NCBI RefSeq assembly: GCF_054482525.1
Contig: NZ_CM137006.1
Reading direction: 5' to 3' (one strand)
Length of the DNA stretch: 64,000 nt
The notes beneath the pieces were generated by a model, which was not told the DNA's origin, made no database searches, and saw only the letters and a program-made list of their open reading frames with translations. The first letter of the stretch is position 1; each line of letters starts with the position of its first letter. The translations under genes and the position numbers were made by a program. This document shows, piece after piece, positions 11,661 through 63,127 of this stretch.

Positions 11661-12320
11661 ATGAGCGAACAAATCACGTTTGCCACCAGCGATTTTGCCA
11701 GTAACCCGGAACCACGTTGCCCCTGCATTTTGCTGCTGGATGTTTCTGGCTCGATGAGCGGCAGACCTATTAATGAACTTAATGCCGGATTGGTTACCTT
11801 TCGCGATGAGCTGCTTGCCGACCCGCTGGCCTTAAAAAGAGTGGAACTCGGTATTGTGACGTTCGGCCCGGTGCATGTGGAACAACCATTTACCAGCGCC
11901 GCTAATTTTTTCCCGCCCATCCTGTTTGCCCAGGGCGATACACCAATGGGCGCCGCCATTACCAAAGCCCTGGATATGGTTGAGGAGCGCAAACGTGAGT
12001 ATCGCGCCAATGGTATTTCCTATTATCGTCCGTGGATTTTCCTGATCACTGATGGCGCACCAACCGATGAGTGGCAGGCTGCCGCCAACAAAGTGTTTCA
12101 GGGGGAAGAAGATAAGAAGTTTGCCTTCTTTTCCATCGGTGTTCAGGGGGCGGATATGAAGACTTTGGCACAAATCAGCGTTCGTCAGCCTTTGCCACTG
12201 CAGGGATTACAATTCCGTGAACTGTTTAGCTGGTTATCCAGTTCGCTGCGTTCGGTTTCCCGCTCCACGCCGGGAACTGAAGTTGTGCTGGAAGCGCCAA
12301 AAGGCTGGACGTCAGTGTGA
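11661..12320 (+). CDS. yegL: von Willebrand factor A (VWA) domain protein, TerY-like
   Basis: 219-aa ORF with a MIDAS-type motif ([11 protein letters not shown]) and downstream ...TPMGAAI... / ...LITDGAPTD..., typical of VWA domains. Its stop overlaps the start of the next gene. Confidence 0.85.
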
Positions 12321-13078
12321 GCTGGCGTCTGGTCTATGCATCAACCGTTGGAACGTCGCACATCAGCGCGGACTTGCCTTGCCAGGATGCCTGCCAGATG
12401 CAGGTTGCCTGGTTAAATGACCAGCAGCCATTATTGTCGGTATTTGTCGCTGATGGCGCAGGCAGTGTCTCGCAGGGTGGCGAAGGCGCGATGCTCGCCG
12501 TCAATGAAGCGATGGCTTATATGTCGCAAAAAGTGCAGGGCGGGGAATTGGGGCTTAATGATGTCCTCGCCACGGATATTGTGCTGACCATTCGTCAGCG
12601 ACTTTTTGCCGAGGCAGAGGCCAAAGAATTAGCGGTTCGCGATTTTGCCTGCACATTTCTGGGACTGATTTCATCGCCTGACGGCACCTTGATTATGCAG
12701 ATTGGCGATGGCGGCGTGGTGGTAGATTTGGGTCACGGTCTGCAATTGCCTCTCACGCCGATGGTGGGTGAATATGCCAATATGACGCACTTCATTACCG
12801 ACGAAGATGCCGTTTCCAGACTGGAAACTTACACCAGTACTGAGCGTGCGCATAAAGTTGCAGCATTTACGGATGGTATTCAGAGGCTGGCGTTAAATAT
12901 GTTGAATAATTCTCCGCATGTGCCTTTTTTTACCCCGTTTTTCAATGGACTGGCGTCAGCAACGCAGGAACAACTCGATTTATTACCTGAATTGTTAAAG
13001 CAGTTTTTGTCCGGCCCGGCGGTAAACGAGCGTACCGATGATGATAAAACGTTGGCACTGGCGCTGTGGTTACCATGA
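12317..13078 (+). CDS. yegK: PP2C-family serine/threonine protein phosphatase
   Basis: 253-aa ORF with a GTG start overlapping the yegL stop (GTGA). PP2C metal-binding motifs [15 protein letters not shown] and ...FTDGIQ... are present. Confidence 0.85.
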
Positions 13079-15015
13079 AACCCACTTTATATACTGCTAC
13101 TGGTGAGTGCGTTACGCCAGGCTGTGAACTGGGCAAAGGTGGCGAAGGCGCGGTTTATGATATCGAGGAGTTTGTCGATAGCGTCGCCAAGATTTATCAC
13201 ACGCCGCCACCCGCCTTAAAACAGGACAAACTTGCCTTTATGGCTGCGACAGCTGATGCGCAGTTGCTGAATTATGTCGCCTGGCCGCAGGCAACGCTTC
13301 ACGGTGGACGAGGCGGAAAAGTTATCGGTTTTATGATGCCAAAAGTTTCTGGTAAAGAACCGATTCATATGATCTATAGCCCGGCACATCGTCGCCAGAG
13401 TTACCCTCATTGTGCGTGGGATTTTCTACTCTATGTTGCGCGCAATATTGCGTCATCTTTTGCTACGGTTCACGAGCACGGGCATGTCGTGGGTGACGTA
13501 AACCAGAACAGCTTTATGGTAGGCCGTGACAGCAAAGTGGTATTGATTGATAGCGACTCCTTTCAGATTAACGCCAATGGAACGCTGCATTTATGCGAAG
13601 TCGGCGTGTCGCATTTTACGCCGCCAGAGCTGCAAACATTGCCATCATTTGTCGGCTTTGAACGCACCGCGAATCACGATAATTTTGGCCTTGCGTTGCT
13701 GATTTTTCACGTCTTGTTTGGTGGTCGGCATCCTTATTCCGGTGTACCGCTTATCTCTGATGCGGGTAATGCGCTGGAGACGGATATTGCCCATTTCCGT
13801 TATGCCTACGCGTCAGATAATCAGCGACGTGGTTTAAAACCGCCGCCACGATCGATACCGCTGTCGATGTTACCGGGCGATGTTGAAGCCATGTTTCAGC
13901 AGGCATTCACGGAAAGTGGCGTGGCAACCGGGCGTCCGACGGCAAAAGCGTGGGTATCAGCACTGGATTCTCTACGCCAACAGTTAAAGAAATGTACCGT
14001 TTCGGCAATGCATGTTTATCCTGCTCATTTGACCGACTGCCCGTGGTGTACGCTGGATAATCAAGGCGTTATCTATTTTATTGATCTCGGCGAAGAGGTC
14101 ATTACCACCAGTGGTGATTTTGTGCTGGCGAAAGTCTGGGCGATGGTGATGGCGTCAGTAGCACCGCCAGCATTGCAATTGCCATTACCCGATCATTTCC
14201 AACCGACTGGCCGGCCGCTTCCTTTAGGCCTGTTACGGCGCGAATACATCATTCTGATTGAGATCGCACTGTCAGCTTTATCGCTGTTGCTTTGCGGTCT
14301 TCAGGCAGAACCGCGTTATATTATTTTGGTTCCTGTGCTGGCGGCTATCTGGATTATTGGCAGTCTGACAAGCAAAGCTTATAAAGCAGAAATCCAGCAA
14401 CGCCGTGAGGCATTTAATCGCGCGAAAATGGACTATGACCATTTAGTCAGCCAGATCCAGCAGGTGGGCGGGCTGGAAGGTTTTATCGCCAAACGGACGA
14501 TGCTCGAAAAAATGAAGGACGAAATGCTCGGGTTACCGGAAGAAGAAAAACGTGCTCTGGCAGCACTTCACGACACCGCAAGGGAACGGCAGAAGCAGAA
14601 GTTTCTGGAGGGATTTTTTATTGATGTTGCCTCTATTCCCGGCGTTGGCCCTGCGCGTAAAGCGGCGTTACGGTCCTTTGGTATTGAAACAGCAGCGGAT
14701 GTTACCCGTCGTGGGGTTAAGCAAGTGAAAGGGTTTGGTGATCATCTGACCCAGGCGGTTATCGACTGGAAAGCGAGTTGCGAACGCCGTTTTGTGTTCA
14801 GGCCGAACGAAGCGGTAACGCCTGCAGACAGACAAGCGGTAATGGCAAAAATGACCGCCAAACGACATCGGCTGGAATCGGCGTTGACTGTCGGCGCGAC
14901 AGAGTTGCAGCGATTCCGCCTTCATGCTCCAGCACGGACCATGCCGTTGATGGAACCGTTACGTCAGGCGGCAGAAAAACTGGCTCAGGCGCAGGCTGAT
15001 TTAAGCCGTTGCTGA
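13075..15015 (+). CDS. yegI: Hanks-type Ser/Thr protein kinase-like protein with a predicted membrane segment and C-terminal helix-hairpin-helix-like motifs
   Basis: The ATG at 13075 overlaps the yegK stop (ATGA); the ORF track uses an in-frame GTG at 13066. Kinase-like motifs: glycine loop LGKGGEGAVY, VAK lysine, catalytic loop HVVGDVNQNSF, LIDSDSF. Hydrophobic stretch ...IILIEIALSALSLLLCGL...ILVPVLAAIWIIGSL..., then HhH-like GVGPARKAALRSFG and VKGFGDHL. Confidence 0.85.
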   Translation: MKPTLYTATGECVTPGCELGKGGEGAVYDIEEFVDSVAKIYHTPPPALKQDKLAFMAATADAQLLNYVAWPQATLHGGRGGKVIGFMMPKVSGKEPIHMIYSPAHRRQSYPHCAWDFLLYVARNIASSFATVHEHGHVVGDVNQNSFMVGRDSKVVLIDSDSFQINANGTLHLCEVGVSHFTPPELQTLPSFVGFERTANHDNFGLALLIFHVLFGGRHPYSGVPLISDAGNALETDIAHFRYAYASDNQRRGLKPPPRSIPLSMLPGDVEAMFQQAFTESGVATGRPTAKAWVSALDSLRQQLKKCTVSAMHVYPAHLTDCPWCTLDNQGVIYFIDLGEEVITTSGDFVLAKVWAMVMASVAPPALQLPLPDHFQPTGRPLPLGLLRREYIILIEIALSALSLLLCGLQAEPRYIILVPVLAAIWIIGSLTSKAYKAEIQQRREAFNRAKMDYDHLVSQIQQVGGLEGFIAKRTMLEKMKDEMLGLPEEEKRALAALHDTARERQKQKFLEGFFIDVASIPGVGPARKAALRSFGIETAADVTRRGVKQVKGFGDHLTQAVIDWKASCERRFVFRPNEAVTPADRQAVMAKMTAKRHRLESALTVGATELQRFRLHAPARTMPLMEPLRQAAEKLAQAQADLSRC

Positions 15016-15027
15016 GCCAGTTTTCAA

Positions 15028-16380
15028 TTAACGAAACACCACTTCCGCCCAGCGTGCCAGCCCGGCGGTGACGGAGCCAAAGTCATCGCCACCTGCAATC
15101 GGAATGCCCGGCAACTGTTCTGTCAGCGCTTTTTTAATCAGCGGTGAACGGGCGCTACCGCCAGTTAGGTAGATAACGTCCGGTTTTTCCTGGGCGTTAT
15201 CCAGCGCCAGTTGCACCTGTTCCAGAATCCGCGCCAGTGGCTGGTTGAGGGCGCTTTCCAGCCCTTGCTGGCTAATCAGCGTAGCCAGTTCATCGCTGAT
15301 AAACGGTAGTGAGGCGCGGGTTTCCGCTACGCTTGAAAGGGCGATTTTGCTCTCTTCTGCACTGCGCACCAGGCGATAGCTTAAACGCTGACGCCAGACT
15401 TTCTGTAACAGGGCCACTTTTTCCGGTTCGCGGGCATCGCGTACCAGATCGTTAAGCAGACGACCGTTGGCACTACTGTAGAAATCACTTTGCGCAGGTA
15501 CGTCGTTGATGGCAACCGCATTCCACCACGGCAGAATCGGCAGGGCGATGCCTTTTTCGGTTTCGCCACCCATGCCAAGTAACGGCATCAGGTTTTTAAA
15601 CGCCAGCGCGATATCCAGATCGTTACCACCAATACGGCAACCACTGTGACCCAGCAGGCTGGCTTCACGATCGAGACGCGAACGCCACTGCGGCCCCATC
15701 AGCAGCAATGAACAGTCAGTCGTACCACCGCCGATATCCACCACCAGCACCCGTTTTTCTTCCTGCAAGGTGGCTTCGTAATCCAGCCCAGCCGCGACCG
15801 GCTCGTACTGGAATACCACATCCTTAAACCCGGCACGCTTTGCCGCGCGTTCCAGAATCCCTTGCGCCTGGGTGTTTGCTTCATCGCCGCCCAGCCCCTG
15901 GAAGTTGATCGGGCGACCAATCACCGCCTGAGTAATCGCATCCGGCAGCTGCGCCTGCGCCTGCTGGCGAATGTGCAACATCATTGCGCAGACCAGATCC
16001 TCAAACAGCGCTACCTGCTGCGGTTTTAAGCCGCTGGCACCGAGGAATGATTTTGGTGATTTCACAAACCACACCTCTTCTGGATCATCAATGTACTGTG
16101 CCAGTGAGGAAAGACCGAACTGCACGCTTTTCGCCGTAACATCGATATCTTCTTCGCGGTTATAACGAATCGCCCGACGCAACAGCGCCTGCGTTTCATC
16201 GTCGTCTGCCGGAACATCATGATGGCGGTACAGCCATTCGCTTACCGCTTCACGCGTTGGCGCGCAAAGCATTGAAGGCAGCAGCGTGCTGTCGTTTTCC
16301 ATTTTCAGTAATTGCGGCTTACCGTCGCGCATGACCGCCACTGAACAGTTTGCTGTACCGTAATCAAAACCAATAAACAC
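15028..16380 (-). CDS. yegD: Hsp70/actin-fold ATPase family protein (DnaK-like, lacking the substrate-binding domain)
   Basis: The ORF track gives 471 aa. I place the start at a GTG (reverse complement of 16378-16380) giving 450 aa beginning FIGFDYGTANCSVAV, the Hsp70 phosphate-1 motif; later motifs VVDIGGGTTD and DVIYLTGGSARSPLI are present. Confidence 0.8.
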   Translation of the reverse strand: MFIGFDYGTANCSVAVMRDGKPQLLKMENDSTLLPSMLCAPTREAVSEWLYRHHDVPADDDETQALLRRAIRYNREEDIDVTAKSVQFGLSSLAQYIDDPEEVWFVKSPKSFLGASGLKPQQVALFEDLVCAMMLHIRQQAQAQLPDAITQAVIGRPINFQGLGGDEANTQAQGILERAAKRAGFKDVVFQYEPVAAGLDYEATLQEEKRVLVVDIGGGTTDCSLLLMGPQWRSRLDREASLLGHSGCRIGGNDLDIALAFKNLMPLLGMGGETEKGIALPILPWWNAVAINDVPAQSDFYSSANGRLLNDLVRDAREPEKVALLQKVWRQRLSYRLVRSAEESKIALSSVAETRASLPFISDELATLISQQGLESALNQPLARILEQVQLALDNAQEKPDVIYLTGGSARSPLIKKALTEQLPGIPIAGGDDFGSVTAGLARWAEVVFR

Positions 16381-20726: not shown

Positions 20727-21043
20727 TACCGCTTTATCCGCAAGACCAGGTCGCCAGTATTCGTTTCTGTGTTTATGCTAGTACAAAAGTTTTACATTTT
20801 ATATGCGAATTGCTCATAAAGTGACGTAAAGGCGGATAATTTGCGCAACTGCGTATAACATTTTTTACCTTGCATTAAAACTGAACAACGTAATTTGCCA
20901 CCGGGAATTATTCGTCAACAATTACTCTGAGCGCGCGGCAACGCTATTCGACTGGTATCAGGCGGATGAAATCCCTATAATTGCCGCGTTTGGCGCTTCG
21001 TCGCCCCCTTCCTAACATCCAGGTTAATCAGGTCGCTAAATAT

Positions 21044-21685
21044 ATGACTGATCAGTCTCATCAGTGCGTCATTATCGGTATCGCTGGCGCATCGGCTTCC
21101 GGCAAGAGTCTTATTGCCAGTACCCTTTATCGTGAATTACGTGAGCAAGTCGGTGATGAACACATCGGCGTAATTCCCGAAGACTGCTATTACAAAGATC
21201 AAAGCCATCTGTCGATGGAAGAACGCGTTAAGACCAACTACGACCATCCCAGCGCGATGGATCACAGCCTGCTGCTTGAGCATTTACAAGCATTGAAACG
21301 CGGCTCGGCCATTGACCTGCCGGTTTACAGCTATGTTGAACATACGCGTATGAAAGAAACGGTGACGGTTGAGCCGAAGAAAGTCATCATTCTCGAAGGC
21401 ATTTTGCTGCTGACGGATGCGCGTTTGCGTGATGAACTTAACTTCTCAATTTTCGTTGATACCCCGCTGGATATCTGCCTGATGCGCCGCATCAAGCGTG
21501 ACGTTAACGAGCGTGGGCGTTCAATGGATTCAGTGATGGCGCAATATCAAAAAACCGTGCGTCCGATGTTCCTGCAATTCATTGAGCCTTCTAAACAATA
21601 TGCGGACATTATCGTGCCGCGCGGCGGGAAAAACCGCATCGCCATCGATATATTGAAAGCGAAAATAAGTCAGTTCTTTGAATAA
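21044..21685 (+). CDS. udk: Uridine/cytidine kinase
   Basis: I place the start at the ATG at 21044 ([22 protein letters not shown], Walker A), giving 213 aa. The ORF-track extension from 20981 has no support. Confidence 0.9.
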
Positions 21686-24525: not shown

Positions 24526-26109
24526 TCACACCTCGTATTCCATCTCGCCATCCTTATGCAGCGGAATAATCTGCACCTTCTGCACGCGATGGCTTTCCAC
24601 CTGCAACGTTTTAAGCAAATAATCCCCCACCTGAACTTCTTCGCCAGGTTTTGGAATACGCTGCAAATATTCCATCAGCAGCCCGGCAATGGTGTGATAT
24701 TCACGTTTCTCGTCCAGCGGCAGCGGCACATATTGCACCAGATCTTCCAGTGGCATATGACCATTCGCCGTCCAGGAACCGTCCGCATTCTTCTGAATAT
24801 CATGGCGGGCGTCGATCTCTTCCACTTCGTTCGGTAAGTTACCGGCAATGGTTTCTGTGACGTCACTTAATGTCACAATCCCTTCCACTGAACCAAACTC
24901 ATCCACCACAAAAGCAAAGTGCGTGCGGGCATTACGGAACTGCTCCAGGGCTGGTAACAACGGCAAGGTTTCCGGGAACACCAGCGGCTGGCGAATCAAC
25001 ACCCGCAGGTTGAGCGGTTCGCCGCGCAGTGACTGTTGTAGCAGGTCGATAACGTGAACAACACCGAGCAAATCTTCCGCGTCGTCACCGTCGGTAACCA
25101 CCAGCCGCGTATGCTGATTTCGCTCCAGCAACTGGCGGATTTCCTCTTCCGGCGCGTTGAGATCGATATGCTCAATATCGTGGCGCGACGTCATAATGCT
25201 GCTGACGGTACGCTGGTTAAGATTAAGGACCCGCTCAATCATCCGCCGCTCCTGCGGATTAAAGATCTGCTGGTTACCATGATCCACCAGCATGGACGCG
25301 GTTTCGGCATCCAGTTCCGCATCTTCTTTTTGCCCGCTAAGCAGGCGCATTACCGCTTCGGTAGTCCGCTGGCGCAGTGTCTGGTTAGCGGAAAGAAAAC
25401 GTCGTCGGTTAAAGATAGCCAACTGATTGAGCGCCTCGATCATCACCGAGAAGCCAATGGCGGCGTACAGGTAGCCTTTCGGAATGACGAAGCCGAAACC
25501 TTCTGCCACCAGGCTAAAGCCAATCATCAACAGGAAGCTTAAGCAGAGAATAACGATGGTCGGGTGACTGTTAACAAATTGCGTTAACGGCTTGCTGGCC
25601 ATCAGCATCAGGCTGATAGCGATAACCACGGCGGCCATCATGACCAGTAAATGGTCGACCATCCCGACGGCGGTAATCACTGAGTCGAGTGAGAAGATGG
25701 CGTCCAGTACCACAATTTGTGTCACCACCCCCCAGAACTTCGCACCTTTGCGTTGTGTGGGGTTATTGCTGTCTTTCCCCTCCAGCCGTTCGTTCAGCTC
25801 CATCGTGGCTTTGAACAGCAGGAAGAAACCACCAAACAGCATGATTAAGTCGCGGGCGCTAAAGGTAAACGAGCGGAAGCTGAACAGCGGTTGAGTCAGG
25901 GTGACCAGCCAGGAGATTGACGCCAGCAGTAACAGGCGCATTAACATCGCCAGCAGCAGCCCGGTAACCCGTGCGCGGTCGCGCTGCTTCGGTGGTAGTT
26001 TTTCGGCGAGGATGGCAATAAAGACCAGGTTATCAATGCCGAGGACCAGTTCGATCACAATCAGCGTGATTAACCCGGCCCAGATAGACGGATCGGCAAT
26101 CCATTCCAT
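24526..26109 (-). CDS. yegH: TerC-like membrane domain plus CBS pair and CorC/HlyC C-terminal domain transporter-associated protein
   Basis: The ORF track gives 549 aa. I place the start at the ATG (reverse complement of 26107-26109, [16 protein letters not shown]...), giving 527 aa. Confidence 0.8.
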
Positions 26110-26550
26110 AGTAAGTACAAAACCTATTCGTTGTATGACAAATGTCACAATTCGATCATGGATAAATCGGGGCAAAAATGCAATGTTGCAGCACTATTTA
26201 TCTCATATTATTTGAGGTTTATAACCTCACATTATCCCTGAATTAAAAGTGGTAATAATAAAACATTATTTAAGAAATATCGCATGTGGAGACACTATAT
26301 TAAATATTGTCAACCTAAAGAAACTCCTAAAAACCATATTGAATGACACTTAATATAATTCTTAAAAATAGCCAATTGCCGAATTGTTACCTTGCCTGCT
26401 ATTCCGTTAGCTGTAACACTTCCTCCTGCATTATTGGAGAGCCAATATTCAATTACCATAATGTCACCTTATATTCGGAAGTTAATTTCCGCAATAACCC
26501 TTTCTCATCAACGACTGTATGTTGAGAGGGTTTTAAAAATTAAGCTAAAT

Positions 26551-26767: not shown

Positions 26768-27907
26768 ATGATGAAATCCAAAATGAAATTGATGCCATTA
26801 TTGGTGTCAGTAACCTTGATAAGCGGTTGCACAGTACTTCCGGGCAGCAATATGTCGACGATGGGGAAAGACGTCATCAAACAGCAGGACGCTGATTTCG
26901 ATCTCGACAAAATGGTGAATGTTTATCCGTTGACCCCGCGCCTGATTGATCAATTACGACCACGCCCGAATGTAGCGCGCCCCAATATGACGCTGGAAAG
27001 TGAGATCGCGAATTATCAGTATCGCGTCGGGCCGGGGGACGTTCTTAATGTCACCGTCTGGGATCACCCGGAACTCACCACGCCAGCCGGTCAGTACCGC
27101 AGCTCCAGCGACACCGGCAACTGGGTACAGCCTGACGGCACTATGTTTTACCCGTATATCGGCAAGGTTCACGTGGTGGGGAAAACGCTCGCTGAAATCC
27201 GCAGTGATATTACCGGGCGCTTAGCGACGTACATCGCTGACCCGCAGGTGGACGTTAATATCGCCGCCTTCCGCTCGCAAAAAGCCTATATCTCCGGTCA
27301 GGTGAATAAATCCGGTCAACAGGCCATCACCAACGTGCCACTGACCATTCTTGATGCCATCAACGCCGCAGGTGGCCTGACCGACACCGCTGACTGGCGC
27401 AACGTAGTGCTAACACACAATGGTCGTGAAGAGCGCATTTCTTTGCAGGCGCTGATGCAAAACGGCGACCTCAATCAGAACCGACTGCTTTACCCCGGCG
27501 ATATTCTCTACGTGCCGCGTAATGATGATCTGAAAGTGTTTGTGATGGGTGAAGTGAAGAAACAGAGCACCCTGAAAATGGACTTTAGCGGCATGACCCT
27601 GACTGAAGCCCTTGGTAATGCTGAAGGCATCGACATGACCACCTCCAACGCCAGCGGCATCTTTGTCATTCGTCCGCTGAAAGGCGAGGGTGGGCGTAAC
27701 GGCAAGATTGCCAATATCTACCAGCTGGATATGTCCGATGCCACGTCGCTGGTGATGGCGACAGAATTCCGCCTGCAACCTTATGACGTGGTGTATGTCA
27801 CCACCGCACCGGTTTCCCGCTGGAACCGTCTGATCAATCAGTTGCTGCCAACTATTAGCGGTGTCCGTTACATGACGGATACAGCCAGCGACATTCATAA
27901 CTGGTAA
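26768..27907 (+). CDS. wza: Outer-membrane polysaccharide export lipoprotein Wza
   Basis: 379-aa ORF with a lipoprotein signal ([21 protein letters not shown]); first gene of the colanic acid cluster. Confidence 0.93.
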
Positions 27908-27912
27908 TCGTC

Positions 27913-28356
27913 ATGTTTAACAACATTTTAGTTGTCTGTGTCGGCAATATTTGCCGTTCCCCGACGGCGGAACGCTTACTGCAACGTTATCACCCGGAGC
28001 TGAAAGTGGAGTCCGCTGGACTCGGCGCGCTGGTCGGTAAGGGCGCTGATCCTACCGCTATCAGCGTCGCCGCAGAACATCAACTGTCTCTGGAAGGTCA
28101 CTGTGCCCGTCAAATCAGCCGCAGCCTGTGTCGCAACTACGACCTGATTTTGACCATGGAAAAGCGCCATATCGAACGCTTATGCGAGATGGCACCTGAG
28201 ATGCGCGGCAAAGTGATGCTGTTTGGTCACTGGGATAACGAATGTGAAATCCCCGATCCGTATCGCAAAAGCCGGGAAACGTTTGCAGCGGTGTACACAT
28301 TACTTGAACGGTCTGCCCGCCAGTGGGCGCAGGCATTGAACGCAGAGCAGGTATAA
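27913..28356 (+). CDS. wzb: Low-molecular-weight protein-tyrosine phosphatase Wzb
   Basis: 147-aa ORF with the active-site loop CVGNICRSP. Confidence 0.93.
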   Translation: MFNNILVVCVGNICRSPTAERLLQRYHPELKVESAGLGALVGKGADPTAISVAAEHQLSLEGHCARQISRSLCRNYDLILTMEKRHIERLCEMAPEMRGKVMLFGHWDNECEIPDPYRKSRETFAAVYTLLERSARQWAQALNAEQV

Positions 28357-28358
28357 GA

Positions 28359-30521
28359 ATGACAGAAAAAGTAAAACAACATGCCGCTCCGGTAACGGGC
28401 AGTGATGAAATCGATATTGGTCGCCTGGTCGGCACCGTCATTGAAGCGCGCTGGTGGGTGATTGGCATCACCGCCGTATTTGCCCTCTGTGCCGTGGTTT
28501 ACACCTTCTTCGCCACGCCGATATATAGCGCCGACGCACTGGTACAAATCGAACAAAGCAGCGGCAATTCGCTGGTGCAGGATATCGGATCGGCATTAGC
28601 CAACAAACCGCCAGCATCGGACGCTGAGATCCAGTTGATTCGTTCGCGTCTGGTGCTTGGTAAAACGGTGGACGATCTCGACCTCGATATTGCGGTGAGC
28701 AAAAACACGTTCCCGATTTTCGGTGCGGGCTGGGATCGTTTGATGGGACGCCAGAACGAGACGGTGAAAGTGACCACCTTTAACCGCCCGAAAGAGATGG
28801 CGGATCAAGTGTTTACGCTTAATGTGCTTGATGACAAAAACTACACCTTGAGCAGTGATGGCGGCTTTAGCGCCCGTGGGCAAGCGGGCCAGATGCTGAA
28901 AAAAGAAGGCGTCACGCTGATGGTTGAAGCCATTCACGCCAGCCCGGGCACTGAGTTTACCGTCACCAAATACTCCACGCTGGGGATGATCAACCAACTG
29001 CAAAACAGCCTGACGGTAACGGAGAACGGCAAAGACGCAGGCGTACTGAGCCTGACTTATACCGGTGAAGATCGCGAACAGATCCGCGACATTCTTAACA
29101 GTATCGCCCGTAACTATCAGGAGCAAAATATTGAGCGCAAATCGGCGGAAGCGTCGAAAAGCCTCGCCTTCCTCGCGCAACAGTTACCGGAAGTACGTAG
29201 CCGCCTTGATGTTGCCGAAAACAAACTGAATGCCTTCCGTCAGGATAAAGATTCTGTTGATCTGCCGCTGGAAGCAAAAGCGGTGCTCGATTCGATGGTG
29301 AACATCGACGCACAGTTGAACGAACTGACCTTTAAAGAGGCAGAAATCTCCAAGCTGTACACCAAAGTTCACCCGGCGTACCGCACGCTGCTGGAGAAAC
29401 GGCAGGCGCTGGAAGACGAAAAAGCCAAACTTAACGGTCGCGTAACGGCGATGCCGAAAACCCAGCAGGAGATTGTGCGCCTGACCCGCGATGTCGAGTC
29501 TGGTCAGCAGGTCTATATGCAACTGCTGAATAAAGAGCAGGAGCTGAAAATCACCGAAGCCAGCACCGTCGGCGATGTGCGCATTGTTGACCCGGCAATC
29601 ACTCAGCCTGGTGTGCTGAAACCGAAGAAAGGGCTGATTATCCTCGGCGCGATTATCCTCGGCCTGATGCTCTCTATCGTGGGTGTGCTGCTGCGCTCGT
29701 TGTTCAATCGCGGCATCGAAAGCCCACAGGTGCTGGAAGAACACGGTATTAGCGTCTATGCCAGCATCCCGCTGTCGGAATGGCAGAAAGCGCGCGATAG
29801 CGTCAAAACCATCAAAGGGGTTAAACGCTATAAACAGAGCCAGCTACTGGCGGTGGGGAATCCAACCGATCTGGCGATTGAAGCCATCCGCAGTCTGCGT
29901 ACCAGTCTGCACTTCGCGATGATGCAGGCGCAGAACAATGTGTTGATGATGACCGGGGTTAGCCCGTCAATCGGTAAAACCTTTGTCTGCGCTAACCTGG
30001 CGGCGGTGATCAGTCAGACCAATAAACGGGTGTTGTTGATCGACTGCGATATGCGCAAAGGCTACACCCACGAGCTGTTGGGCACCAATAACGTCAATGG
30101 CCTGTCGGAAATTTTGATTGGTCAGGGCGATATTACTACCGCTGCTAAACCGACCTCTATTGCCAAATTTGACCTGATCCCGCGCGGTCAGGTACCGCCA
30201 AATCCTTCTGAACTGTTGATGAGCGAACGCTTTGCCGAACTGGTGAACTGGGCGAGTAAAAACTATGACCTGGTGTTGATTGATACGCCGCCGATTCTGG
30301 CAGTGACCGATGCGGCAATTGTTGGTCGTCATGTCGGAACCACGTTAATGGTGGCGCGTTATGCGGTCAACACATTGAAAGAAGTGGAAACCAGTCTGAG
30401 CCGCTTTGAGCAAAATGGTATTCCGGTGAAAGGGGTGATTCTCAACTCCATCTTCCGCCGCGCCAGCGCGTATCAGGATTATGGCTATTACGAATACGAA
30501 TATAAGTCGGATGCGAAATAA
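28359..30521 (+). CDS. wzc: Tyrosine autokinase / polysaccharide co-polymerase Wzc
   Basis: I place the start at the ATG at 28359 (MTEKVKQHAAPV...), giving 720 aa. Features: two membrane segments, Walker A (GVSPSIGKT) and a C-terminal tyrosine-rich tail (YQDYGYYEYEY). Confidence 0.92.
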   Translation: MTEKVKQHAAPVTGSDEIDIGRLVGTVIEARWWVIGITAVFALCAVVYTFFATPIYSADALVQIEQSSGNSLVQDIGSALANKPPASDAEIQLIRSRLVLGKTVDDLDLDIAVSKNTFPIFGAGWDRLMGRQNETVKVTTFNRPKEMADQVFTLNVLDDKNYTLSSDGGFSARGQAGQMLKKEGVTLMVEAIHASPGTEFTVTKYSTLGMINQLQNSLTVTENGKDAGVLSLTYTGEDREQIRDILNSIARNYQEQNIERKSAEASKSLAFLAQQLPEVRSRLDVAENKLNAFRQDKDSVDLPLEAKAVLDSMVNIDAQLNELTFKEAEISKLYTKVHPAYRTLLEKRQALEDEKAKLNGRVTAMPKTQQEIVRLTRDVESGQQVYMQLLNKEQELKITEASTVGDVRIVDPAITQPGVLKPKKGLIILGAIILGLMLSIVGVLLRSLFNRGIESPQVLEEHGISVYASIPLSEWQKARDSVKTIKGVKRYKQSQLLAVGNPTDLAIEAIRSLRTSLHFAMMQAQNNVLMMTGVSPSIGKTFVCANLAAVISQTNKRVLLIDCDMRKGYTHELLGTNNVNGLSEILIGQGDITTAAKPTSIAKFDLIPRGQVPPNPSELLMSERFAELVNWASKNYDLVLIDTPPILAVTDAAIVGRHVGTTLMVARYAVNTLKEVETSLSRFEQNGIPVKGVILNSIFRRASAYQDYGYYEYEYKSDAK

Positions 30522-30549
30522 CGACGCCTGCATTCGCACCGCCCCGTAG

Positions 30550-30579
30550 GCCGGATAAGGCGCTCACGCCGCATCCGGC
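30550..30579. repeat. REP-like palindrome between wzc and wcaA
   Basis: GCCGGATAAGGCGCTCACGCCGCATCCGGC is an inverted repeat of the REP family. Confidence 0.65.
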
Positions 30580-30613
30580 AAGCAAACCAGCTCATAAGTC
30601 GGGAGAACAACCT

Positions 30614-31453
30614 ATGAAAGACAATCCGCTGATCTCAATCTATATGCCGACCTGGAACCGCCAACAACTGGCGATTCGGGCGATAAAATCGGTCCTGCGC
30701 CAGGACTACAGTAACTGGGAGATGATCATCGTGGATGATTGCTCCACCTCCTGGGAACAGCTGCAACAGTATGTCAGCGCCCTCAACGATCCGCGTATCA
30801 CCTACATTCACAACGACATTAACAGCGGGGCGTGCGCGGTACGTAACCAGGCGATTATGCTGGCGCAAGGGGAATACATCACCGGGATCGATGATGATGA
30901 TGAATGGACACCCAACCGCCTGAGCGTCTTCCTCGCCCATAAACAGCAACTGGTCACTCATGCCTTTTTGTACGCTAACGACTACGTTTGCCAGGGCGAA
31001 GTCTATTCCCAACCGGCAAGTTTGCCGCTGTATCCAAAATCGCCATATTCACGCCGACTGTTCTACAAACGCAATATCATTGGCAATCAGGTCTTTACCT
31101 GGGCGTGGCGTTTCAAAGAGTGTTTGTTCGATACCGAACTGAAAGCGGCACAGGATTACGACATCTTTCTGCGAATGGTGGTGGAGTATGGCGAACCGTG
31201 GAAAGTGGAAGAGGCGACGCAGATCCTGCATATCAATCACGGCGAAATGCAGATCACCTCGTCACCGAAAAAATTCTCCGGATACTTCCACTTTTACCGC
31301 AAGCACAAAGACAAATTCGACCGTGCCAGTAAAAAATATCAGCTGTTTACCCTCTACCAGATCCGCAATAAACGTATGACCTGGCGCACTTTGCTGACGC
31401 TGCTGTCGGTGCGTAACGGCAAACGTCTGGCTGATGGTATTCGGGGGCGCTAA
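30614..31453 (+). CDS. wcaA: Colanic acid biosynthesis glycosyltransferase WcaA (GT2)
   Basis: 279-aa ORF; position and length match wcaA. Confidence 0.88.
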   Translation: MKDNPLISIYMPTWNRQQLAIRAIKSVLRQDYSNWEMIIVDDCSTSWEQLQQYVSALNDPRITYIHNDINSGACAVRNQAIMLAQGEYITGIDDDDEWTPNRLSVFLAHKQQLVTHAFLYANDYVCQGEVYSQPASLPLYPKSPYSRRLFYKRNIIGNQVFTWAWRFKECLFDTELKAAQDYDIFLRMVVEYGEPWKVEEATQILHINHGEMQITSSPKKFSGYFHFYRKHKDKFDRASKKYQLFTLYQIRNKRMTWRTLLTLLSVRNGKRLADGIRGR

Positions 31454-31455
31454 AG

Positions 31456-31944
31456 ATGCTGGAAGATCTGCGCGCCAACAGCTGGAGTTTACGCCCGTGC
31501 TGCATGGTTCTTGCCTATCGCGTCGCTCATTTTTGTTCGGTGTGGCGCAAAAAGAACGTCCTCAACAATCTGTGGGCGGCCCCGCTGCTGGTGCTGTATC
31601 GCATTATCACCGAATGCTTTTTCGGTTATGAAATCCAGGCCGCCGCGACCATTGGCCGACGCTTTACTATCCATCACGGTTACGCCGTGGTGATCAATAA
31701 AAACGTGGTCGTGGGGGATGATTTCACCATTCGCCACGGCGTCACTATCGGCAATCGTGGTGCCGATAACATGGCATGCCCACACATTGGCAACGGCGTC
31801 GAACTCGGTGCCAACGTCATTATTCTTGGTGATATCACGCTTGGTAACAACGTCACCGTGGGCGCGGGCAGCGTGGTGCTCGACTCTGTCCCGGACAACG
31901 CGCTGGTGGTGGGAGAAAAAGCGCGAGTGAAGGTAATTAAATGA
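31456..31944 (+). CDS. wcaB: Colanic acid biosynthesis acetyltransferase WcaB (hexapeptide-repeat)
   Basis: 162-aa ORF with left-handed beta-helix hexapeptide repeats. Confidence 0.88.
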   Translation: MLEDLRANSWSLRPCCMVLAYRVAHFCSVWRKKNVLNNLWAAPLLVLYRIITECFFGYEIQAAATIGRRFTIHHGYAVVINKNVVVGDDFTIRHGVTIGNRGADNMACPHIGNGVELGANVIILGDITLGNNVTVGAGSVVLDSVPDNALVVGEKARVKVIK

Positions 31945-33158
31945 ATATTCTGCAATTTAATGTGCGACTGGCGGAAGGCGGGGCAGCAGGTGTGGCGTTA
32001 GATCTCCACCAGCGCGCGCTGCAACAGGGGCTGGCGTCACATTTTGTCTACGGCTACGGCAAAGGCGGCAAAGAGAGCGTCAGCCATCAAAACTATCCGC
32101 AGGTCATCAAACATACGCCGCGGATGACCGCGATGGCGAACATTGCGTTGTTTCGTCTGTTTAATCGCGATCTGTTTGGCAATTTCAATGAGTTATATCG
32201 CACTATTACCCGCACACCGGGTCCGGTGGTCCTGCATTTTCATGTGCTGCACAGCTACTGGTTGAATCTAAAGAACGTAGTGCGTTTTTGTGAAAAGGTA
32301 AAAAAACATAAACCGGATATCACACTGGTCTGGACGCTGCACGACCACTGGAGCGTTACCGGACGCTGCGCCTTTACCGACGGTTGCGAAGGCTGGAAAA
32401 CGGGCTGCCAGAAATGCCCGACCTTAAATAATTATCCGCCGGTGAAGATTGATCGCGCACACCAACTGGTGGCGGGTAAACGCCAGTTATTCCGCGAGAT
32501 GCTGGCACTGGGCTGTCAGTTTATTTCCCCCAGCCAGCATGTGGCTGATGCTTTCAATAGTCTGTACGGTCCAGGGCGTTGCCGGATTATCAATAATGGC
32601 ATTGATATGGCAACCGAAGCGATTCTGGCGGACTTGCCTCCGGTGCGCGAAACCCAGGGCAAGCCGAAAATCGCGGTGGTGGCGCATGATCTGCGTTACG
32701 ACGGCAAAACTAATCAGCAACTGGTGCGTGAGATGATGGCGCTGGGCGACAAAATCGAACTGCATACCTTTGGTAAGTTCTCGCCGTTCACCGCTGGCAA
32801 CGTGGTTAATCACGGCTTTGAAACTGACAAGCGCAAGTTGATGAGCGCGCTCAATCAGATGGATGCGCTGGTATTCAGTTCTCGCGTCGATAACTACCCA
32901 CTGATTTTGTGTGAGGCGTTATCAATTGGCGTGCCGGTGATTGCCACCCATAGCGATGCGGCGAGGGAAGTGCTGCAAAAATCCGGCGGTAAAACCGTCA
33001 GCGAAGAAGACGTGCTGCAACTGGTGCAGTTAAGCAAACCGGAAATCGCGCAGGCGATATTTGGTACCACGCTGGCTGAGTTCAGCCAACGCAGCCGCGC
33101 CGCCTACAGTGGACAACAGATGCTGGAGGAGTATGTCAACTTCTATCAGAATCTGTAG
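31941..33158 (+). CDS. wcaC: Colanic acid biosynthesis glycosyltransferase WcaC (GT4)
   Basis: 405-aa ORF; position and length match wcaC. Confidence 0.88.
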   Translation: MNILQFNVRLAEGGAAGVALDLHQRALQQGLASHFVYGYGKGGKESVSHQNYPQVIKHTPRMTAMANIALFRLFNRDLFGNFNELYRTITRTPGPVVLHFHVLHSYWLNLKNVVRFCEKVKKHKPDITLVWTLHDHWSVTGRCAFTDGCEGWKTGCQKCPTLNNYPPVKIDRAHQLVAGKRQLFREMLALGCQFISPSQHVADAFNSLYGPGRCRIINNGIDMATEAILADLPPVRETQGKPKIAVVAHDLRYDGKTNQQLVREMMALGDKIELHTFGKFSPFTAGNVVNHGFETDKRKLMSALNQMDALVFSSRVDNYPLILCEALSIGVPVIATHSDAAREVLQKSGGKTVSEEDVLQLVQLSKPEIAQAIFGTTLAEFSQRSRAAYSGQQMLEEYVNFYQNL

Positions 33159-34350
33159 CTACCTGCTGCTGCCGCTGATCTACCTGCTGGTTAACGTCAA
33201 AATCGCCCAGCTTGGCGAAAGTTTCCCCATCACCATCGTCACTTTTTTACCTGTCTTGTTACTGCTGTTTTTAGAACGCATCAGCGTTAAAAAATTGATG
33301 ATTGCCTTAGGGATTGGCGCGGGACTCACGGCGTTTAACTACCTGTTTGGTCAGTCGTTGGATGCCAGTAAATACGTCACTTCAACCATGCTGTTTGTCT
33401 ATATTGTGATCATTATTGGCATGGTGTGGAGTATTCGCTTTAAAACGATTTCGCCCCACAACCACCGCAAGATATTACGCTTTTTTTATCTGGTGGTCGG
33501 GTTGGTGGTGGCGCTGGCGGCGGTGGAGATGGCGCAAATTATCCTCACCGGCGGCAGCAGTATTATGGAATCGATTTCGAAATATCTGATTTACAGCAAC
33601 AGCTATGTGCTGAATTTCATCAAATTCGGCGGCAAGCGCACGACAGCACTTTATTTCGAACCGGCATTTTTCGCTCTGGCATTAATCTCAATTTGGCTCA
33701 GCATCAAACAGTTTGGTATCAAAACCCCTAAAACCGATGCTATGATTCTCGCAGGGATAATATTATCCGGATCGTTTTCAGGGGTTATGACCTTTATCCT
33801 GTTTTATTTGCTGGAGTGGGCATTTCAATATCTGAATAAAGAGGCGATTAAGAAAAAGTTACCGTTAGCATTGATTTCTCTGGCTGTATTCCTGGTTGGT
33901 GTGGTAATCGCGTTTCCTTATATTTCCACCCGTCTGGGCGATTTAGGTACGGAAGGATCGTCATCATATTATCGTATTGTCGGTCCGCTGGTGATGGTCG
34001 GTTATTCTTTGACCCATATTGACGGTGTAGTCAGATTTGGCTCACTTTATGAATATGTCGCATCATTCGGAATATTTAACGGTGCGGATGTCGGAAAAAC
34101 CATAGACAATGGTTTGTATCTGCTGATTATTTATTTTTCCTGGTTCGCAGTGTTTTTATCGCTGTGGTACATGGGGAAAGTGATAAAAATGATGATCAAC
34201 GCTTTTGGTGATAACCGCAATTTTCGCGTGCAATTATATCTTTTTACTCCGGTATCGCTGTTTTTTACCGGTTCGATATTTAGCCCGGAATATGCATTTT
34301 TAATCGTCTGTCCGTTTATTTTGCGAAAAGCGTTAAATATTACGAGGTAA
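33133..34350 (+). CDS. wcaD: Colanic acid polymerase WcaD
   Basis: I place the start at the ATG at 33133 ([19 protein letters not shown]...), giving 405 aa and overlapping the wcaC end; polytopic membrane protein. Confidence 0.85.
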
Positions 34351-34354
34351 GAAC

Positions 34355-35101: not shown

Positions 35102-35116
35102 ATATAAGGGAAAACG

Positions 35117-35665: not shown

Positions 35666-35690
35666 ATTCAAAAATACAGAGGAATAAGAC

Positions 35691-36812: not shown

Positions 36813-36814
36813 GC

Positions 36815-37780: not shown

Positions 37781-37782
37781 TG

Positions 37783-39482: not shown

Positions 39483-39484
39483 TT

Positions 39485-40921: not shown

Positions 40922-41022
40922 CAGTTGAATAATCAACCGGATTAATTCTCCGGTAAATAACGACAAAAACAAAATTGGCCGTTTCGGTCAGGGCCAACTA
41001 TTGCCTGAAAAAGGGTAACGAC

Positions 41023-42393
41023 ATGAAAAAATTAACCTGCTTTAAAGTCTACGATATTCGCGGGAAATTAGGCGAAGAACTGAATGAAGATATTGCCTGG
41101 CGTATTGGTCGCGCCTATGGCGAATTTCTTAAACCGAAAACCATTGTTTTAGGCGGTGATGTCCGCCTCACCAGCGAAACCTTAAAACTGGCGCTGGCAA
41201 AAGGTTTACAGGATGCGGGCGTCGATGTGCTGGATATTGGCATGTCCGGCACCGAAGAGATCTATTTCGCCACGTTCCATCTCAGCGTGGATGGCGGCAT
41301 TGAAGTTACCGCCAGCCATAACCCGATGGATTACAACGGCATGAAGCTGGTGCGCGAAGGGGCTCGCCCGATCAGCGGCGATACCGGACTGCGCGACGTC
41401 CAGCGTCTGGCAGAAGCCAATGACTTCCCTCCTGTCGATGAAACCAAACGCGGTCGCTATCAGCAAATCAATCTGCGTGACGCTTACGTTGATCACCTGT
41501 TCGGTTATATCAACGTCAAAAACCTCACGCCGCTCAAGCTGGTGATCAACTCCGGGAACGGCGCGGCGGGGCCGGTGGTGGACGCCATTGAAGCCCGCTT
41601 TAAAGCCCTCGGCGCACCCGTGGAATTGATCAAAGTGCACAACACGCCGGACGGGAATTTCCCCAACGGTATTCCTAACCCGCTGCTGCCGGAATGTCGC
41701 GACGACACCCGCAATGCGGTCATCAAACACGGCGCGGATATGGGCATTGCCTTTGATGGCGATTTTGACCGCTGTTTCCTGTTTGACGAAAAAGGGCAGT
41801 TTATCGAGGGCTACTACATTGTTGGCCTGCTGGCAGAAGCGTTCCTCGAAAAAAATCCCGGCGCGAAGATCATCCACGATCCACGTCTCTCCTGGAACAC
41901 CGTTGATGTGGTGACTGCCGCAGGCGGCACCCCGGTAATGTCGAAAACCGGACACGCCTTTATTAAAGAACGTATGCGCAAGGAAGACGCCATCTACGGT
42001 GGCGAAATGAGCGCCCACCATTACTTCCGTGATTTCGCTTACTGCGACAGCGGCATGATCCCGTGGCTGCTGGTCGCCGAACTGGTGTGCCTGAAAGGGA
42101 AAACGCTGGGCGAACTGGTGCGCGACCGGATGGCAGCGTTTCCGGCAAGCGGTGAGATCAACAGCAAACTGGCGCACCCCGTTGAGGCGATTAATCGCGT
42201 CGAACAGCATTTTAGCCGTGAGGCGCTGGCGGTGGATCGCACCGATGGCATCAGCATGACCTTTGCCGACTGGCGCTTTAACCTGCGCTCCTCCAACACC
42301 GAACCGGTGGTGCGGTTGAATGTGGAATCGCGCGGCGATGTACCGCTGATGGAAGCGCGAACGCGAACTCTGCTGACGTTGCTGAACGAGTAA
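41023..42393 (+). CDS. cpsG: Phosphomannomutase (colanic acid copy)
   Basis: I place the start at the ATG at 41023 ([14 protein letters not shown]...), giving 456 aa. Phosphoserine loop TASHNP and metal-binding FDGDFDR are present. Confidence 0.93.
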
Positions 42394-58341: not shown

Positions 58342-58351
58342 GAGGTTATTT

Positions 58352-59473: not shown

Positions 59474-59476
59474 AGT

Positions 59477-60442: not shown

Positions 60443-60444
60443 TA

Positions 60445-60900
60445 TTGAACAAGAGATTAGAAACAGAGTTATTTAAATCAATAGTTGAACATACTCCACT
60501 AATCTCGATAGACCTTATTATAAGAAACGAAGATGGTAAGGCGCTGCTTGGTCAGCGCCTTAATCGTCCAGCACAAAATTATTGGTTTGTGCCGGGGGGA
60601 CGGATTCTTAAAGATGAGTCTTTCGAGAACGCATTCAAAAGAGTTACTTTAGAAGAATTGGGTGTTCAAATTAGCATTAATGAAGCAAAATTTCTTGGGA
60701 TTTATGAACATTTCTACAGCGACAATTTTTCTGGGACTTGTTTTTCAACTCATTATGTCGTACACGGATATGAGATTAGTTTGATGCCACATCAAATTAA
60801 CTATCCAACACTACAACATAGTACTTACAATTGGTTCGATATAGCCGAATTGTTAGCTAATTCCTCAGTTCATCAGTACACAAAAAATTATTTTAAGTGA
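60445..60900 (+). CDS. gmm: GDP-mannose mannosyl hydrolase (Nudix; O-antigen copy)
   Basis: 151-aa ORF with an apparent TTG start at 60445, seven nt after an AGGAG; similar to the colanic-acid Gmm core (...NYWFVPGGR...). Confidence 0.75.
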   Translation: MNKRLETELFKSIVEHTPLISIDLIIRNEDGKALLGQRLNRPAQNYWFVPGGRILKDESFENAFKRVTLEELGVQISINEAKFLGIYEHFYSDNFSGTCFSTHYVVHGYEISLMPHQINYPTLQHSTYNWFDIAELLANSSVHQYTKNYFK

Positions 60901-60911
60901 AGGTTATTTAT

Positions 60912-62297
60912 ATGCTACTTCCTGTTGTAATGGCCGGTGGTTCTGGAACTAGATTGTGGCCACTTTCTCGAACACTATATCCGAAGCAATTCCTATCGTT
61001 AACTAGTCGTTTGACTATGCTACAAGAGACCTTAAGAAGGCTTGAAGGGGTTGAACATCGTCCTGCTCTGGTTATTTGTAATGAAGTTCATCGTTTTATC
61101 GTTGCAGAACAGATGCGTAATGTAAATTTAGCGAATAGTGGCATTTTACTAGAGCCGATAGGTCGTAATACAGCCCCCGCAGTTGCGCTTGCTGCTCTTA
61201 AAGCGATTTCATCAGGTGAGGATCCAATACTGCTTGTACTAGCAGCCGATCATGAAATACAAGACCAAAAGCGCTTTATATCGTCAATATTGGCTGCAAA
61301 AGAATTTGCAGAGGAAGGTAAGCTGGTAACTTTTGGTATTGTGCCAACCAAACCCGAAACTGGATATGGCTACATAAAAACCGGAGAAAATTTAAATGAA
61401 TATGGTTTTAAAGTTTCTGCTTTTGTTGAAAAGCCTGAGCTAGATGTGGCCAAAAAATATCTTGAAGATGGAGATTATCTTTGGAATAGTGGAATATTCA
61501 TGTTTAGGGCTTCTGTGTTTATTGATGAGTTGAATAAATTTAGACCAGACATACTAAAAATATGCCAACAAGCATTGAAGTCCTCTACACAAGATCTTGA
61601 TTTTATCCGTATAGATAATGACTCATTTAGTTGTTGCCCTGAAGAATCCATTGATTACGCTGTTATGGAGAAAACAACAGAGGCTGTGGTAGTTCCATTA
61701 AATGCCCACTGGAGCGATGTTGGTTCTTGGTCTGCATTATGGGAAATTAGCAGAAAAGATAAAAGTGGAAATGCAATTAGAGGAGATGTATTAATTCATG
61801 ATTCTTCTGACAGTTATCTTTACTCACAACATAGATTAATTGGTGTAGTAGGAGTTAAAGATTTAGTAGTTGTTGAAACTAAAGATGCTATTCTCGTTGC
61901 GCATAAAGATAAAGTTCAACAGGTAAAAAATATTGTAGAAAAACTTAAAGTTAATAACCGTACGGAATATCTGCAGCATCGTGAAATATTTAGGCCATGG
62001 GGCAGTCATGACTCTATAGCGGAAGGATCTCGATTTGAGGTTAAACATGTCGTTATTCATCCTGGACATAAAACTGCTAAACAGATTCATTACCATCGTA
62101 CTGAGCATTGGATTGTTGTTTCTGGAACAGCAAAAGTCCATTATGAAGATGAAATATTTCTTGTTTCTGAAAATGAATCAACTTATATACCAATAGGTGT
62201 ACCTCATTTTATTGAGAATCCAGGAAAGATCCCTTTGGAGATTATTGAGGTACGTTCAGGTGTCTACTTGGATGAAGATGATGTTGTTAGAATCTAA
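60912..62297 (+). CDS. manC: Mannose-1-phosphate guanylyltransferase (O-antigen copy)
   Basis: I place the start at the ATG at 60912 ([20 protein letters not shown]...); the ORF track uses an in-frame GTG at 60897. Paralogue of cpsB. Confidence 0.88.
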   Translation: MLLPVVMAGGSGTRLWPLSRTLYPKQFLSLTSRLTMLQETLRRLEGVEHRPALVICNEVHRFIVAEQMRNVNLANSGILLEPIGRNTAPAVALAALKAISSGEDPILLVLAADHEIQDQKRFISSILAAKEFAEEGKLVTFGIVPTKPETGYGYIKTGENLNEYGFKVSAFVEKPELDVAKKYLEDGDYLWNSGIFMFRASVFIDELNKFRPDILKICQQALKSSTQDLDFIRIDNDSFSCCPEESIDYAVMEKTTEAVVVPLNAHWSDVGSWSALWEISRKDKSGNAIRGDVLIHDSSDSYLYSQHRLIGVVGVKDLVVVETKDAILVAHKDKVQQVKNIVEKLKVNNRTEYLQHREIFRPWGSHDSIAEGSRFEVKHVVIHPGHKTAKQIHYHRTEHWIVVSGTAKVHYEDEIFLVSENESTYIPIGVPHFIENPGKIPLEIIEVRSGVYLDEDDVVRI

Positions 62298-62380
62298 AAT
62301 GATGCTGGATACTAATGCAACATTATTATTCGTAATGCTGTACTGACGTTATTTAATTATGATTATTATTGGATGTTAAA

Positions 62381-63127
62381 ATGAAAGTCAGTATTATTAC
62401 AGTGACTTATAATAGTGAAAAGACTTTAAGGGATACTTTAGAGTCAATAGAGTTGCAAACCTATAAAGATATAGAGTATATAATTATTGATGGTGGTTCT
62501 ACAGATAATACGTTAAAACTAATTAACGAAGTATCAACAAGAGTAACCAAATGTCTATCAGAAAGCGATAACGGTATCTATGATGCTTTAAATAAAGGTA
62601 TAAATTTATCTACGGGAGATATTATTGGATTCGTTCATTCTGATGACCTTTTAGCAAGACCTGATATTATTGAAACTATTGTAAGCCGTTTCCATGAGAC
62701 AAAAGCGGATGTTGTATACGGTGATTTGGTTTTTTTCGAAAAAAACCAAACTGATATAATCAAACGATACTGGCGTAGTGGTCCTTTTAAACGTTCTAAG
62801 CTATCATTAGGCTGGGCACCACCGCATCCATCTTTCTATATGAGGAGGGAATTATATAAAGACGATGGATATTTTGATTTATCCTATAGGATTGCTGCAG
62901 ACTATGATCAGATGGTCAGGATTTTGAAACGTGATGATATTAAAGTTATTTATGTTCCTCAAGTATTTGTAAAGATGAGATTGGGTGGGGAAAGTACCAG
63001 AATTGATAACGCGATATCAAGTACAAAGGAAATTGTAGAAGTTATGAAAAACCATAATGTAAATTGGAAAATTGCTATCATTATCAGAAAAATCTCAAAA
63101 CTAATGCAATTGTTTGCGCATAAATAA
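62381..63127 (+). CDS. O-antigen glycosyltransferase, GT2 family (WcaE-like)
   Basis: I place the start at the ATG at 62381 (MKVSIITVTYNSEKTL...), with IIIDGGSTDNT and DNGIYDALNKG motifs; the ORF track starts at a TTG at 62369. Confidence 0.75.
   Translation: MKVSIITVTYNSEKTLRDTLESIELQTYKDIEYIIIDGGSTDNTLKLINEVSTRVTKCLSESDNGIYDALNKGINLSTGDIIGFVHSDDLLARPDIIETIVSRFHETKADVVYGDLVFFEKNQTDIIKRYWRSGPFKRSKLSLGWAPPHPSFYMRRELYKDDGYFDLSYRIAADYDQMVRILKRDDIKVIYVPQVFVKMRLGGESTRIDNAISSTKEIVEVMKNHNVNWKIAIIIRKISKLMQLFAHK

Follow-up and report, generated by a model that had tools for sequence, protein, structure and literature searches.

Annotated translation start sites, including non-ATG and internal starts, in a 64-kb chromosome segment of an O11-type Escherichia coli

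Results

Agreement of the named starts with annotation and comparative evidence

The DNA analysed here (the window) is a 64-kb chromosome segment of an O11-type Escherichia coli, in which several genes start at a codon other than ATG or at an ATG lying inside the longest open reading frame (ORF). Our results indicate that the starts named for these genes from the raw sequence are, with high probability, ordinary bacterial translation start sites that were correctly called. A sequence-only reading had proposed GTG starts for yegK (here pphC; 12317) and yegD (16380), a TTG start for the gmm gene of the O-antigen cluster (60445), and internal ATG starts for mdtA, udk, yegH, wzc, wcaD, the colanic-acid gmm and cpsG, the O-antigen manC, and the second gene of a family-2 glycosyltransferase (GT2-2). 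The three non-ATG codons are present (GTG on the plus strand at 12317, GTG on the minus strand at 16380, and TTG on the plus strand at 60445), and all 13 named starts (yegK counted once, as pphC), the internal ATGs among them, coincide with the RefSeq/PGAP starts in the genome NZ_CP151009.1. Evidence independent of annotation is concordant for 12 of the 13, and comprises the conservation of the start across species or serogroups, stop codons within the extensions of relatives, substitution patterns, the boundary of homology between paralogues, and Shine-Dalgarno (SD) strength. At the level of sequence, these comparisons support the interpretation given to the starts by that reading.

The window is collinear with strain 19KM1776 (NZ_CP151009.1, bases 32019-96018) and with the O11 strain PCN033 (NZ_CP006632.1). 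Base by base, it differs from NZ_CP151009.1 by six single-nucleotide polymorphisms, none of them near a start codon, and by no insertion or deletion; therefore, the RefSeq coordinates carry over directly to the window. The RefSeq/PGAP annotations of these two O11-type genomes show no start differences, and they also call yegI at 13075. The alignment to curated homologues that had been suggested as a check gives the same answer, since the starts and lengths agree with the orthologues of E. coli K-12 MG1655 (NC_000913.3), with curated lengths matched in 10/10 shared genes. The lengths are identical for mdtA, pphC, yegD, udk, yegH, wzc, wcaD, gmm, and cpsG (415, 253, 450, 213, 527, 720, 405, 159, and 456 residues, respectively), and these nine genes have the same start codons, with the first 12-15 residues of their products identical or one residue apart. 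The version numbers of several K-12 protein records (.2 or.4) suggest past revision by curators. The upstream sequences of K-12 and of the window are 97-100% identical for most genes, with a decisive stop codon in gmm only. In contrast to K-12, the window represents an O11-type strain, and its O11 gmm, manC, and GT2 genes have no K-12 counterpart.

Longest ORFs, start codons, and family models

The 51 complete annotated coding sequences of the window were compared with their longest ORFs, defined from the first ATG, GTG, or TTG after a stop codon. In 11 of the 51, the longest ORF starts upstream of the annotated start. This overshoot arises because a start codon can occur in frame by chance after the upstream stop and before the codon at which translation really begins. 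Since three start codons are allowed and three stop codons exist, it is expected in a sizeable minority of genes. The claim that the ORF track over-extends N-termini was correct for ten of these 11 genes, all of which had been named, and overlooked the eleventh, yegI. The range assigned to the named genes (12317-62381) ends at the ATG of GT2-2 and leaves the mdtA start (10773) just outside. In pphC and in the O-antigen gmm, the longest ORF already begins at the real GTG or TTG.

Annotated start codons are ATG in 47 of the 51 coding sequences, GTG in three (pphC, yegD, and mdtC), and TTG in the O-antigen gmm. Roughly one in ten E. coli genes uses a non-ATG start, and the 4/51 seen here is within the usual range of this species. 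The GTG start of mdtC (6401-6403, minus strand), which also lies just outside the range of the named genes, is preceded by the strongest anti-SD pairing of the window (GAGGAGG, dG -12.0 kcal/mol).

When anti-SD pairing was scored as the duplex energy with the 3' end of the 16S rRNA (dG), the annotated start was stronger than the start of the longest ORF in 10 of the 11 overshoot cases, with udk as the exception. No weak annotated start with a clearly better start downstream was found among the window genes checked. The translations of the longest ORFs were also scanned against the NCBIfam and Pfam models. Position 1 of the model coincides with the annotated methionine in yegD, wzc, wcaD, gmm, and cpsG, and within two residues of the annotated start in mdtA, udk, the O-antigen manC, and GT2-2. 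Initiation at the annotated starts would be led by SD pairing.

Starts of yegD, mdtA, udk, and yegH

The widest comparison is available for yegD (15028-16380, minus strand, 450 residues), which starts at GTG 16380 and whose longest ORF begins 21 codons upstream at TTG 16443. One DNA-pattern scan of species-representative genomes with the back-translated YegD motif GFDYGTANC gave 120 loci. The codon homologous to 16380 is a start codon in 115 of the 118 evaluable species (ATG in 86 and GTG in 29), an in-frame stop lies within the 21 upstream codons in 69 species, and an SD core precedes the start in 109 of the 115 orthologues. In the window, the SD is GGGGA, with a dG of -5.5 at the annotated start against +2.2 for the longest ORF, and position 1 of the model NF008673 is at residue 22 of the long ORF.

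The start of mdtA (9526-10773, minus strand, 415 residues) is ATG 10773, and its longest ORF extends 49 codons further, to GTG 10920. The ATG is kept in 23/23 species, 15 of which have in-frame stops in the extension; position 3 of the model NF008589 is at residue 53 of the long ORF, and the SD has a dG of -3.8 at the annotated start against +0.3 for the longest ORF. For udk (21044-21685, plus strand, 213 residues; ATG 21044), the longest ORF begins at TTG 20981, adding 21 codons. The ATG is kept in 28/28 species, with the upstream frame broken by stops (10) or shifted, and the N-terminus of the Thermus Udk aligns at most two residues off. Lastly, yegH (24526-26109, minus strand, 527 residues) starts at ATG 26109, 22 codons inside a longest ORF that begins at TTG 26175. 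Its ATG is kept in three of four species loci and in the divergent E. coli cluster described below, in-frame stops interrupt the extension in relatives, and the TerC domain begins 13 residues after the ATG.

Two non-coding motifs were observed upstream of these genes, both farther from the ATG than a canonical SD. Upstream of udk, the motif AATCAGGTCGC (21024-21043) is kept across genera (28 species), and the reading frame is not. Upstream of mdtA, AGGAnGAGA is present at -20 to -11 (10774-10793) in most of the 23 species, again with the reading frame not kept.

The yegL-pphC-yegI operon

The GTG start of pphC (12317-13078, plus strand, 253 residues) is the first start codon after the in-frame stop and overlaps the yegL stop by four nucleotides (GTGA, 12317-12320). 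It is preceded by the SD AAAGG (dG -5.6). The Pfam domain PP2C_2 begins at residue 11 and would be cut short by initiation at the next available start codon, TTG 12374 (residue 20). Homologues at 60-66% identity, obtained from one protein search and coming from sources that include Serratia, Klebsiella, Piscinibacter, and Magnetococcus, are almost all of 253 residues, with alignments that begin at residue 1. Two of them (L131 and L132) also start at a GTG that forms a GTGA overlap with the stop of an upstream VWA gene. Judged from these loci, the GTG start and its overlap are conserved across classes of Proteobacteria, as far as the Betaproteobacteria. The 762-bp pphC ORF has been shown to yield an active enzyme (10.1101/303594).

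The downstream gene yegI (13075-15015, plus strand, 646 residues) starts at ATG 13075, which overlaps the pphC stop as ATGA (13075-13078); its longest ORF begins three codons upstream, at GTG 13066. The ATG is preferred because the ATGs of the kinase genes of L131 and L132, whose products also have 646 residues, align with 13075. The kinase genes of these two loci lie 6-7 nucleotides past the PP2C stop, whereas yegI overlaps the pphC stop in the window. The arrangement of GTGA and ATGA in yegL-pphC-yegI is the same as in coupled bacterial operons with overlapping stop and start codons, and this layout suggests that initiation along the operon would be helped by translational coupling through the four-nucleotide overlaps.

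Several further features of this locus were observed. The window lacks the yegJ gene of K-12 (K-12 locus L003, 37040-39647), so that pphC and yegI are contiguous, and YegI has 646 residues against 648 in K-12; the two proteins are 97% identical except for the first ~17 residues, which resemble distant homologues. From these sequences, the contiguous pphC-yegI arrangement looks ancestral. The difference between REL606 and MG1655 is mentioned in the PphC study (10.1101/303594). The composition of the locus (11661-15015), VWA plus PP2C plus a Ser/Thr kinase, is that of the 'TerY-P triad' defined in PMC11090510. Pfam matches comprise VWA and PP2C_2 in the neighbouring genes of L131 and L132 (1-3762 each) and PP2C_2 in the PphC of the window. 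Kinase activity is reported in 10.1101/819920. By definition, the kinase of the TerY-P triad is expected to end in a zinc ribbon, which an OB fold replaces in defence variants; in YegI, only a sub-threshold match to HHH_5 was seen. A PADLOC scan of yegL-pphC-yegI gave only two marginal kinase matches (E about 1e-4), which we judged not meaningful. None of pphC, yegI, and yegL was found in the 120 yegD loci of other species, where mdtA is often near yegD. Copies of yegL-pphC-yegI with ~65% identity were seen next to a phage-type integrase and also in Piscinibacter, and this distribution suggests a horizontally mobile cassette.

Starts in the O-antigen cluster

The O-antigen genes were compared with the fcl-gmm-manC junctions of other serogroups (L004-L007; 93% and about 76% identity). 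The O11 gmm (60445-60900, plus strand, 151 residues; WP_001042472.1) starts at TTG 60445. This TTG is aligned with an ATG in three homologues at 76% identity (L005-L007), in which the next codons are conserved, and it is the sole start in the ORF that keeps the N-terminus of the family (model position 3 at residue 5). An AGGAG SD lies six nucleotides upstream (dG -6.8).

The following gene, manC (60912-62297, plus strand, 461 residues), starts at ATG 60912, and its longest ORF begins five codons upstream, at GTG 60897. Both the ATG and its AAGG SD are invariant in the homologues; position 1 of the model TIGR01479 is at residue 7 of the long ORF, and the SD has a dG of -5.2 at the ATG against +2.2 at the GTG. 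In GT2-2 (62381-63127, plus strand, 248 residues), ATG 62381 is four codons inside a longest ORF that starts at TTG 62369. The ATG is kept in three homologous loci (L008-L010), and in two of these the position of the TTG is not occupied by a start codon. The matches to several GT2 models begin with residue 5 of the long ORF, and the dG is -3.4 against +0.6.

Starts in the colanic-acid cluster

The comparator for these genes was an E. coli colanic-acid cluster only ~76% identical to window positions 26768-42393 (NZ_CP024147.1, 1-19500; hereafter L133). In 75 complete E. coli genomes, the wcaC/wcaD junction of the cluster shares only ~76% identity with the common allele, and this junction has no match in 615 of 5426 genomes.

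The gene wcaD (33133-34350, plus strand, 405 residues) starts at ATG 33133 with a 26-nucleotide overlap with wcaC, and its longest ORF begins 24 codons upstream, at TTG 33061. Between the window and L133, 10 of the 16 substitutions in this extension fall at position 2 of its codons, where wcaC has its wobble position, and 19/23 residues are identical in the wcaC frame against 14/24 in the extension frame. By these substitutions, the extension evolves in the frame of wcaC. In addition, position 1 of the model TIGR04010 is at residue 25 of the long ORF, and the SD has a dG of -9.3 at the ATG against -3.3.

In wzc (28359-30521, plus strand, 720 residues; ATG 28359), the longest ORF begins 12 codons upstream at GTG 28323, inside wzb. 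The matches to two NCBIfam models begin with residue 13 of the long ORF, the N-terminus of the paralogous K30 Wzc agrees within about one residue, and the structures of the K-12 Wzc have 720 residues. Frame-specific substitutions relative to L133 amount to only six differences in the wzc extension, and the wzc start, which the evidence supports, rests mainly on SD strength, the family models, and the K30 paralogue.

The colanic-acid gmm (37783-38262, plus strand, 159 residues) starts at ATG 37783, immediately preceded by another ATG at 37780, and its longest ORF begins 13 codons upstream of 37783, at GTG 37744. In-frame stops interrupt the extension in both K-12 and L133, and position 1 of the model NF011963 is at residue 14 of the long ORF. 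The sequence-only reading was right about the internal ATGs, gave no coordinates for them, and left the ATG-ATG doublet of gmm unremarked.

Finally, cpsG (41023-42393, plus strand, 456 residues; ATG 41023) has a longest ORF starting 16 codons upstream at TTG 40975, and position 1 of the model NF011943 is at residue 17. A second phosphomannomutase gene, the manB/cpsG of the O-antigen cluster, starts at 63152 (63152-64000 in the window). The DNA homology between the two copies begins exactly at the ATG, and the first 126 residues of the proteins show 98% identity, a pattern compatible with recombination between them or with gene conversion. Upstream of cpsG, the cpsB-cpsG spacer (40922-41022) contains a hairpin just after cpsB, followed by a leader of ~60 nucleotides (AAATAACGACAAAAA...GGTCAGGGCCAACTATTGCCTGAAAAAGGGTAAC); this leader is ~74% identical in L133 and contains a TTGGCC/GGCCAA inverted repeat.

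Discussion

Alternative starts and isoforms

The start positions and their conservation are observed directly, and from them we infer that ribosomes initiate at these codons and nowhere else. Several points weigh against this reading and must be considered with caution. The NCBIfam PRK models and the PGAP calls draw in part on the K-12 annotation and hence are not fully independent evidence. Direct start-site evidence for these genes, in the form of N-terminal peptides or Ribo-RET/TetRP peaks, was not found: the genes do not occur in the supplements of TRAINSPOTTER (PMC13245402) and TetRP (PMC4909307), and nothing relevant emerged when the literature was searched for N-terminal data for GDP-mannose mannosyl hydrolase. 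The study of PphC used an N-terminal tag, and native expression was undetectable (10.1101/303594). The spurious upstream TTG of udk has a nominally better SD than the annotated ATG (-4.8 vs -3.2); the ATG is chosen despite its weaker SD because its conservation is decisive. Lastly, the wzc extension is an open frame in L133, and that of cpsG is open in both K-12 and L133, where the upstream TTG 40975 corresponds to an ATG. With the open extension of wcaD in L133 and the conserved ~60-nucleotide leader of cpsG, these observations could be taken to mean that, in one or more cases, the gene really spans the longest ORF and begins upstream of what would then be an internal methionine, the likeliest cases being those of cpsG (TTG 40975) and wzc (GTG 28323). 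We consider this extremely unlikely. The upstream candidates lack an SD (dG of +0.4 against -4.5 at the annotated ATG for cpsG, where no SD is present in any of the sequences, and -2.4 against -6.4 for wzc), the second copy of cpsG has stops four and nine codons upstream of its ATG, and the wzc extension lies within the wzb coding sequence, which accounts for its conservation. The family models and the K30 paralogue begin at the annotated methionine, and in the other eight genes the extension is excluded by stops or non-start codons in relatives. For cpsG itself, the frame-specific substitutions relative to L133 (10 differences) show no clear pattern. TTG 40975 is the best remaining candidate for a real minor alternative start giving an N-terminally extended isoform, to which we assign a very small chance; alternatively, the conserved leader in this spacer between cpsB and cpsG could act as a regulatory RNA element.

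A different uncertainty concerns the colanic-acid gmm, whose translation might begin at the first ATG of the doublet (37780) and give a 160-residue 'MMFLRQ...' protein. Indeed, the PDB entries 1RYA, 2GT2, 2GT4, and 2I8T all have an MM... N-terminus (160-residue Gmm), and ATG 37780 shares one base with the fcl stop (TAATG), a layout compatible with coupling. In L133, however, gmm has a single ATG, homologous to 37783 and directly following CGC and the fcl stop; the GGGGG SD lies two nucleotides from 37780 and five from 37783, and the curated K-12 annotation, PGAP, and NF011963 all describe a 159-residue Gmm. The longer protein is thus an improbable alternative, although one to be taken more seriously than the other extensions considered here. 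Dual starts, with a minor extended isoform in some genes, for example from GTG 60897 in the O-antigen manC or GTG 13066 in yegI, seem very doubtful. Alternative in-frame starts have been reported genome-wide in E. coli (10.1101/520783), and GTG 60897 overlaps the gmm stop as GTGA (60897-60900), like the real start of pphC. Nevertheless, the homologues read ACC or ATC in place of this GTG, which has no SD; no matching start lies upstream in the homologues of yegI, and nothing in the present data points to dual initiation. Since GTG 60897 mimics the pphC overlap and yet is not conserved, a GTGA overlap alone is no evidence of a start. The reading of the annotated starts as the ordinary start sites of these genes is the one that we retain.

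Genomic context

In its 5' part, the window contains baeSR and mdtDCBA on the minus strand, the ibsB/ibsA toxins, and yegL-pphC-yegI. The middle part comprises yegD, alkA, dgcE, udk, dcd, asmA, yegH, and the colanic-acid cluster (wza to wcaM), and the 3' part gne, galF, and an O-antigen cluster of the O11 family with its own gmd-fcl-gmm-manC-GT2-manB. Between yegH and wza, ahead of the colanic-acid operon, PGAP annotates a hypothetical protein of 49 residues (26310-26459, minus strand), at a position where K-12 has no annotated coding sequence. A chimeric window or an assembly artefact as the origin of the unusual starts was ruled out by the collinearity with a complete genome.

Significance of the start assignments

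All of the named starts are already present in the curated K-12 or PGAP annotation, and they bring no new biology. The value of the analysis is one of quality control: the correct starts could be inferred from the raw sequence (13/13), and a longest-ORF track is unsuitable for defining N-termini. The comparative tables add support that does not depend on annotation, namely for yegD in 118 species, for the correspondence of TTG and ATG in the O11 gmm, for the conserved pphC start with its GTGA overlap, and for the 159-residue Gmm.

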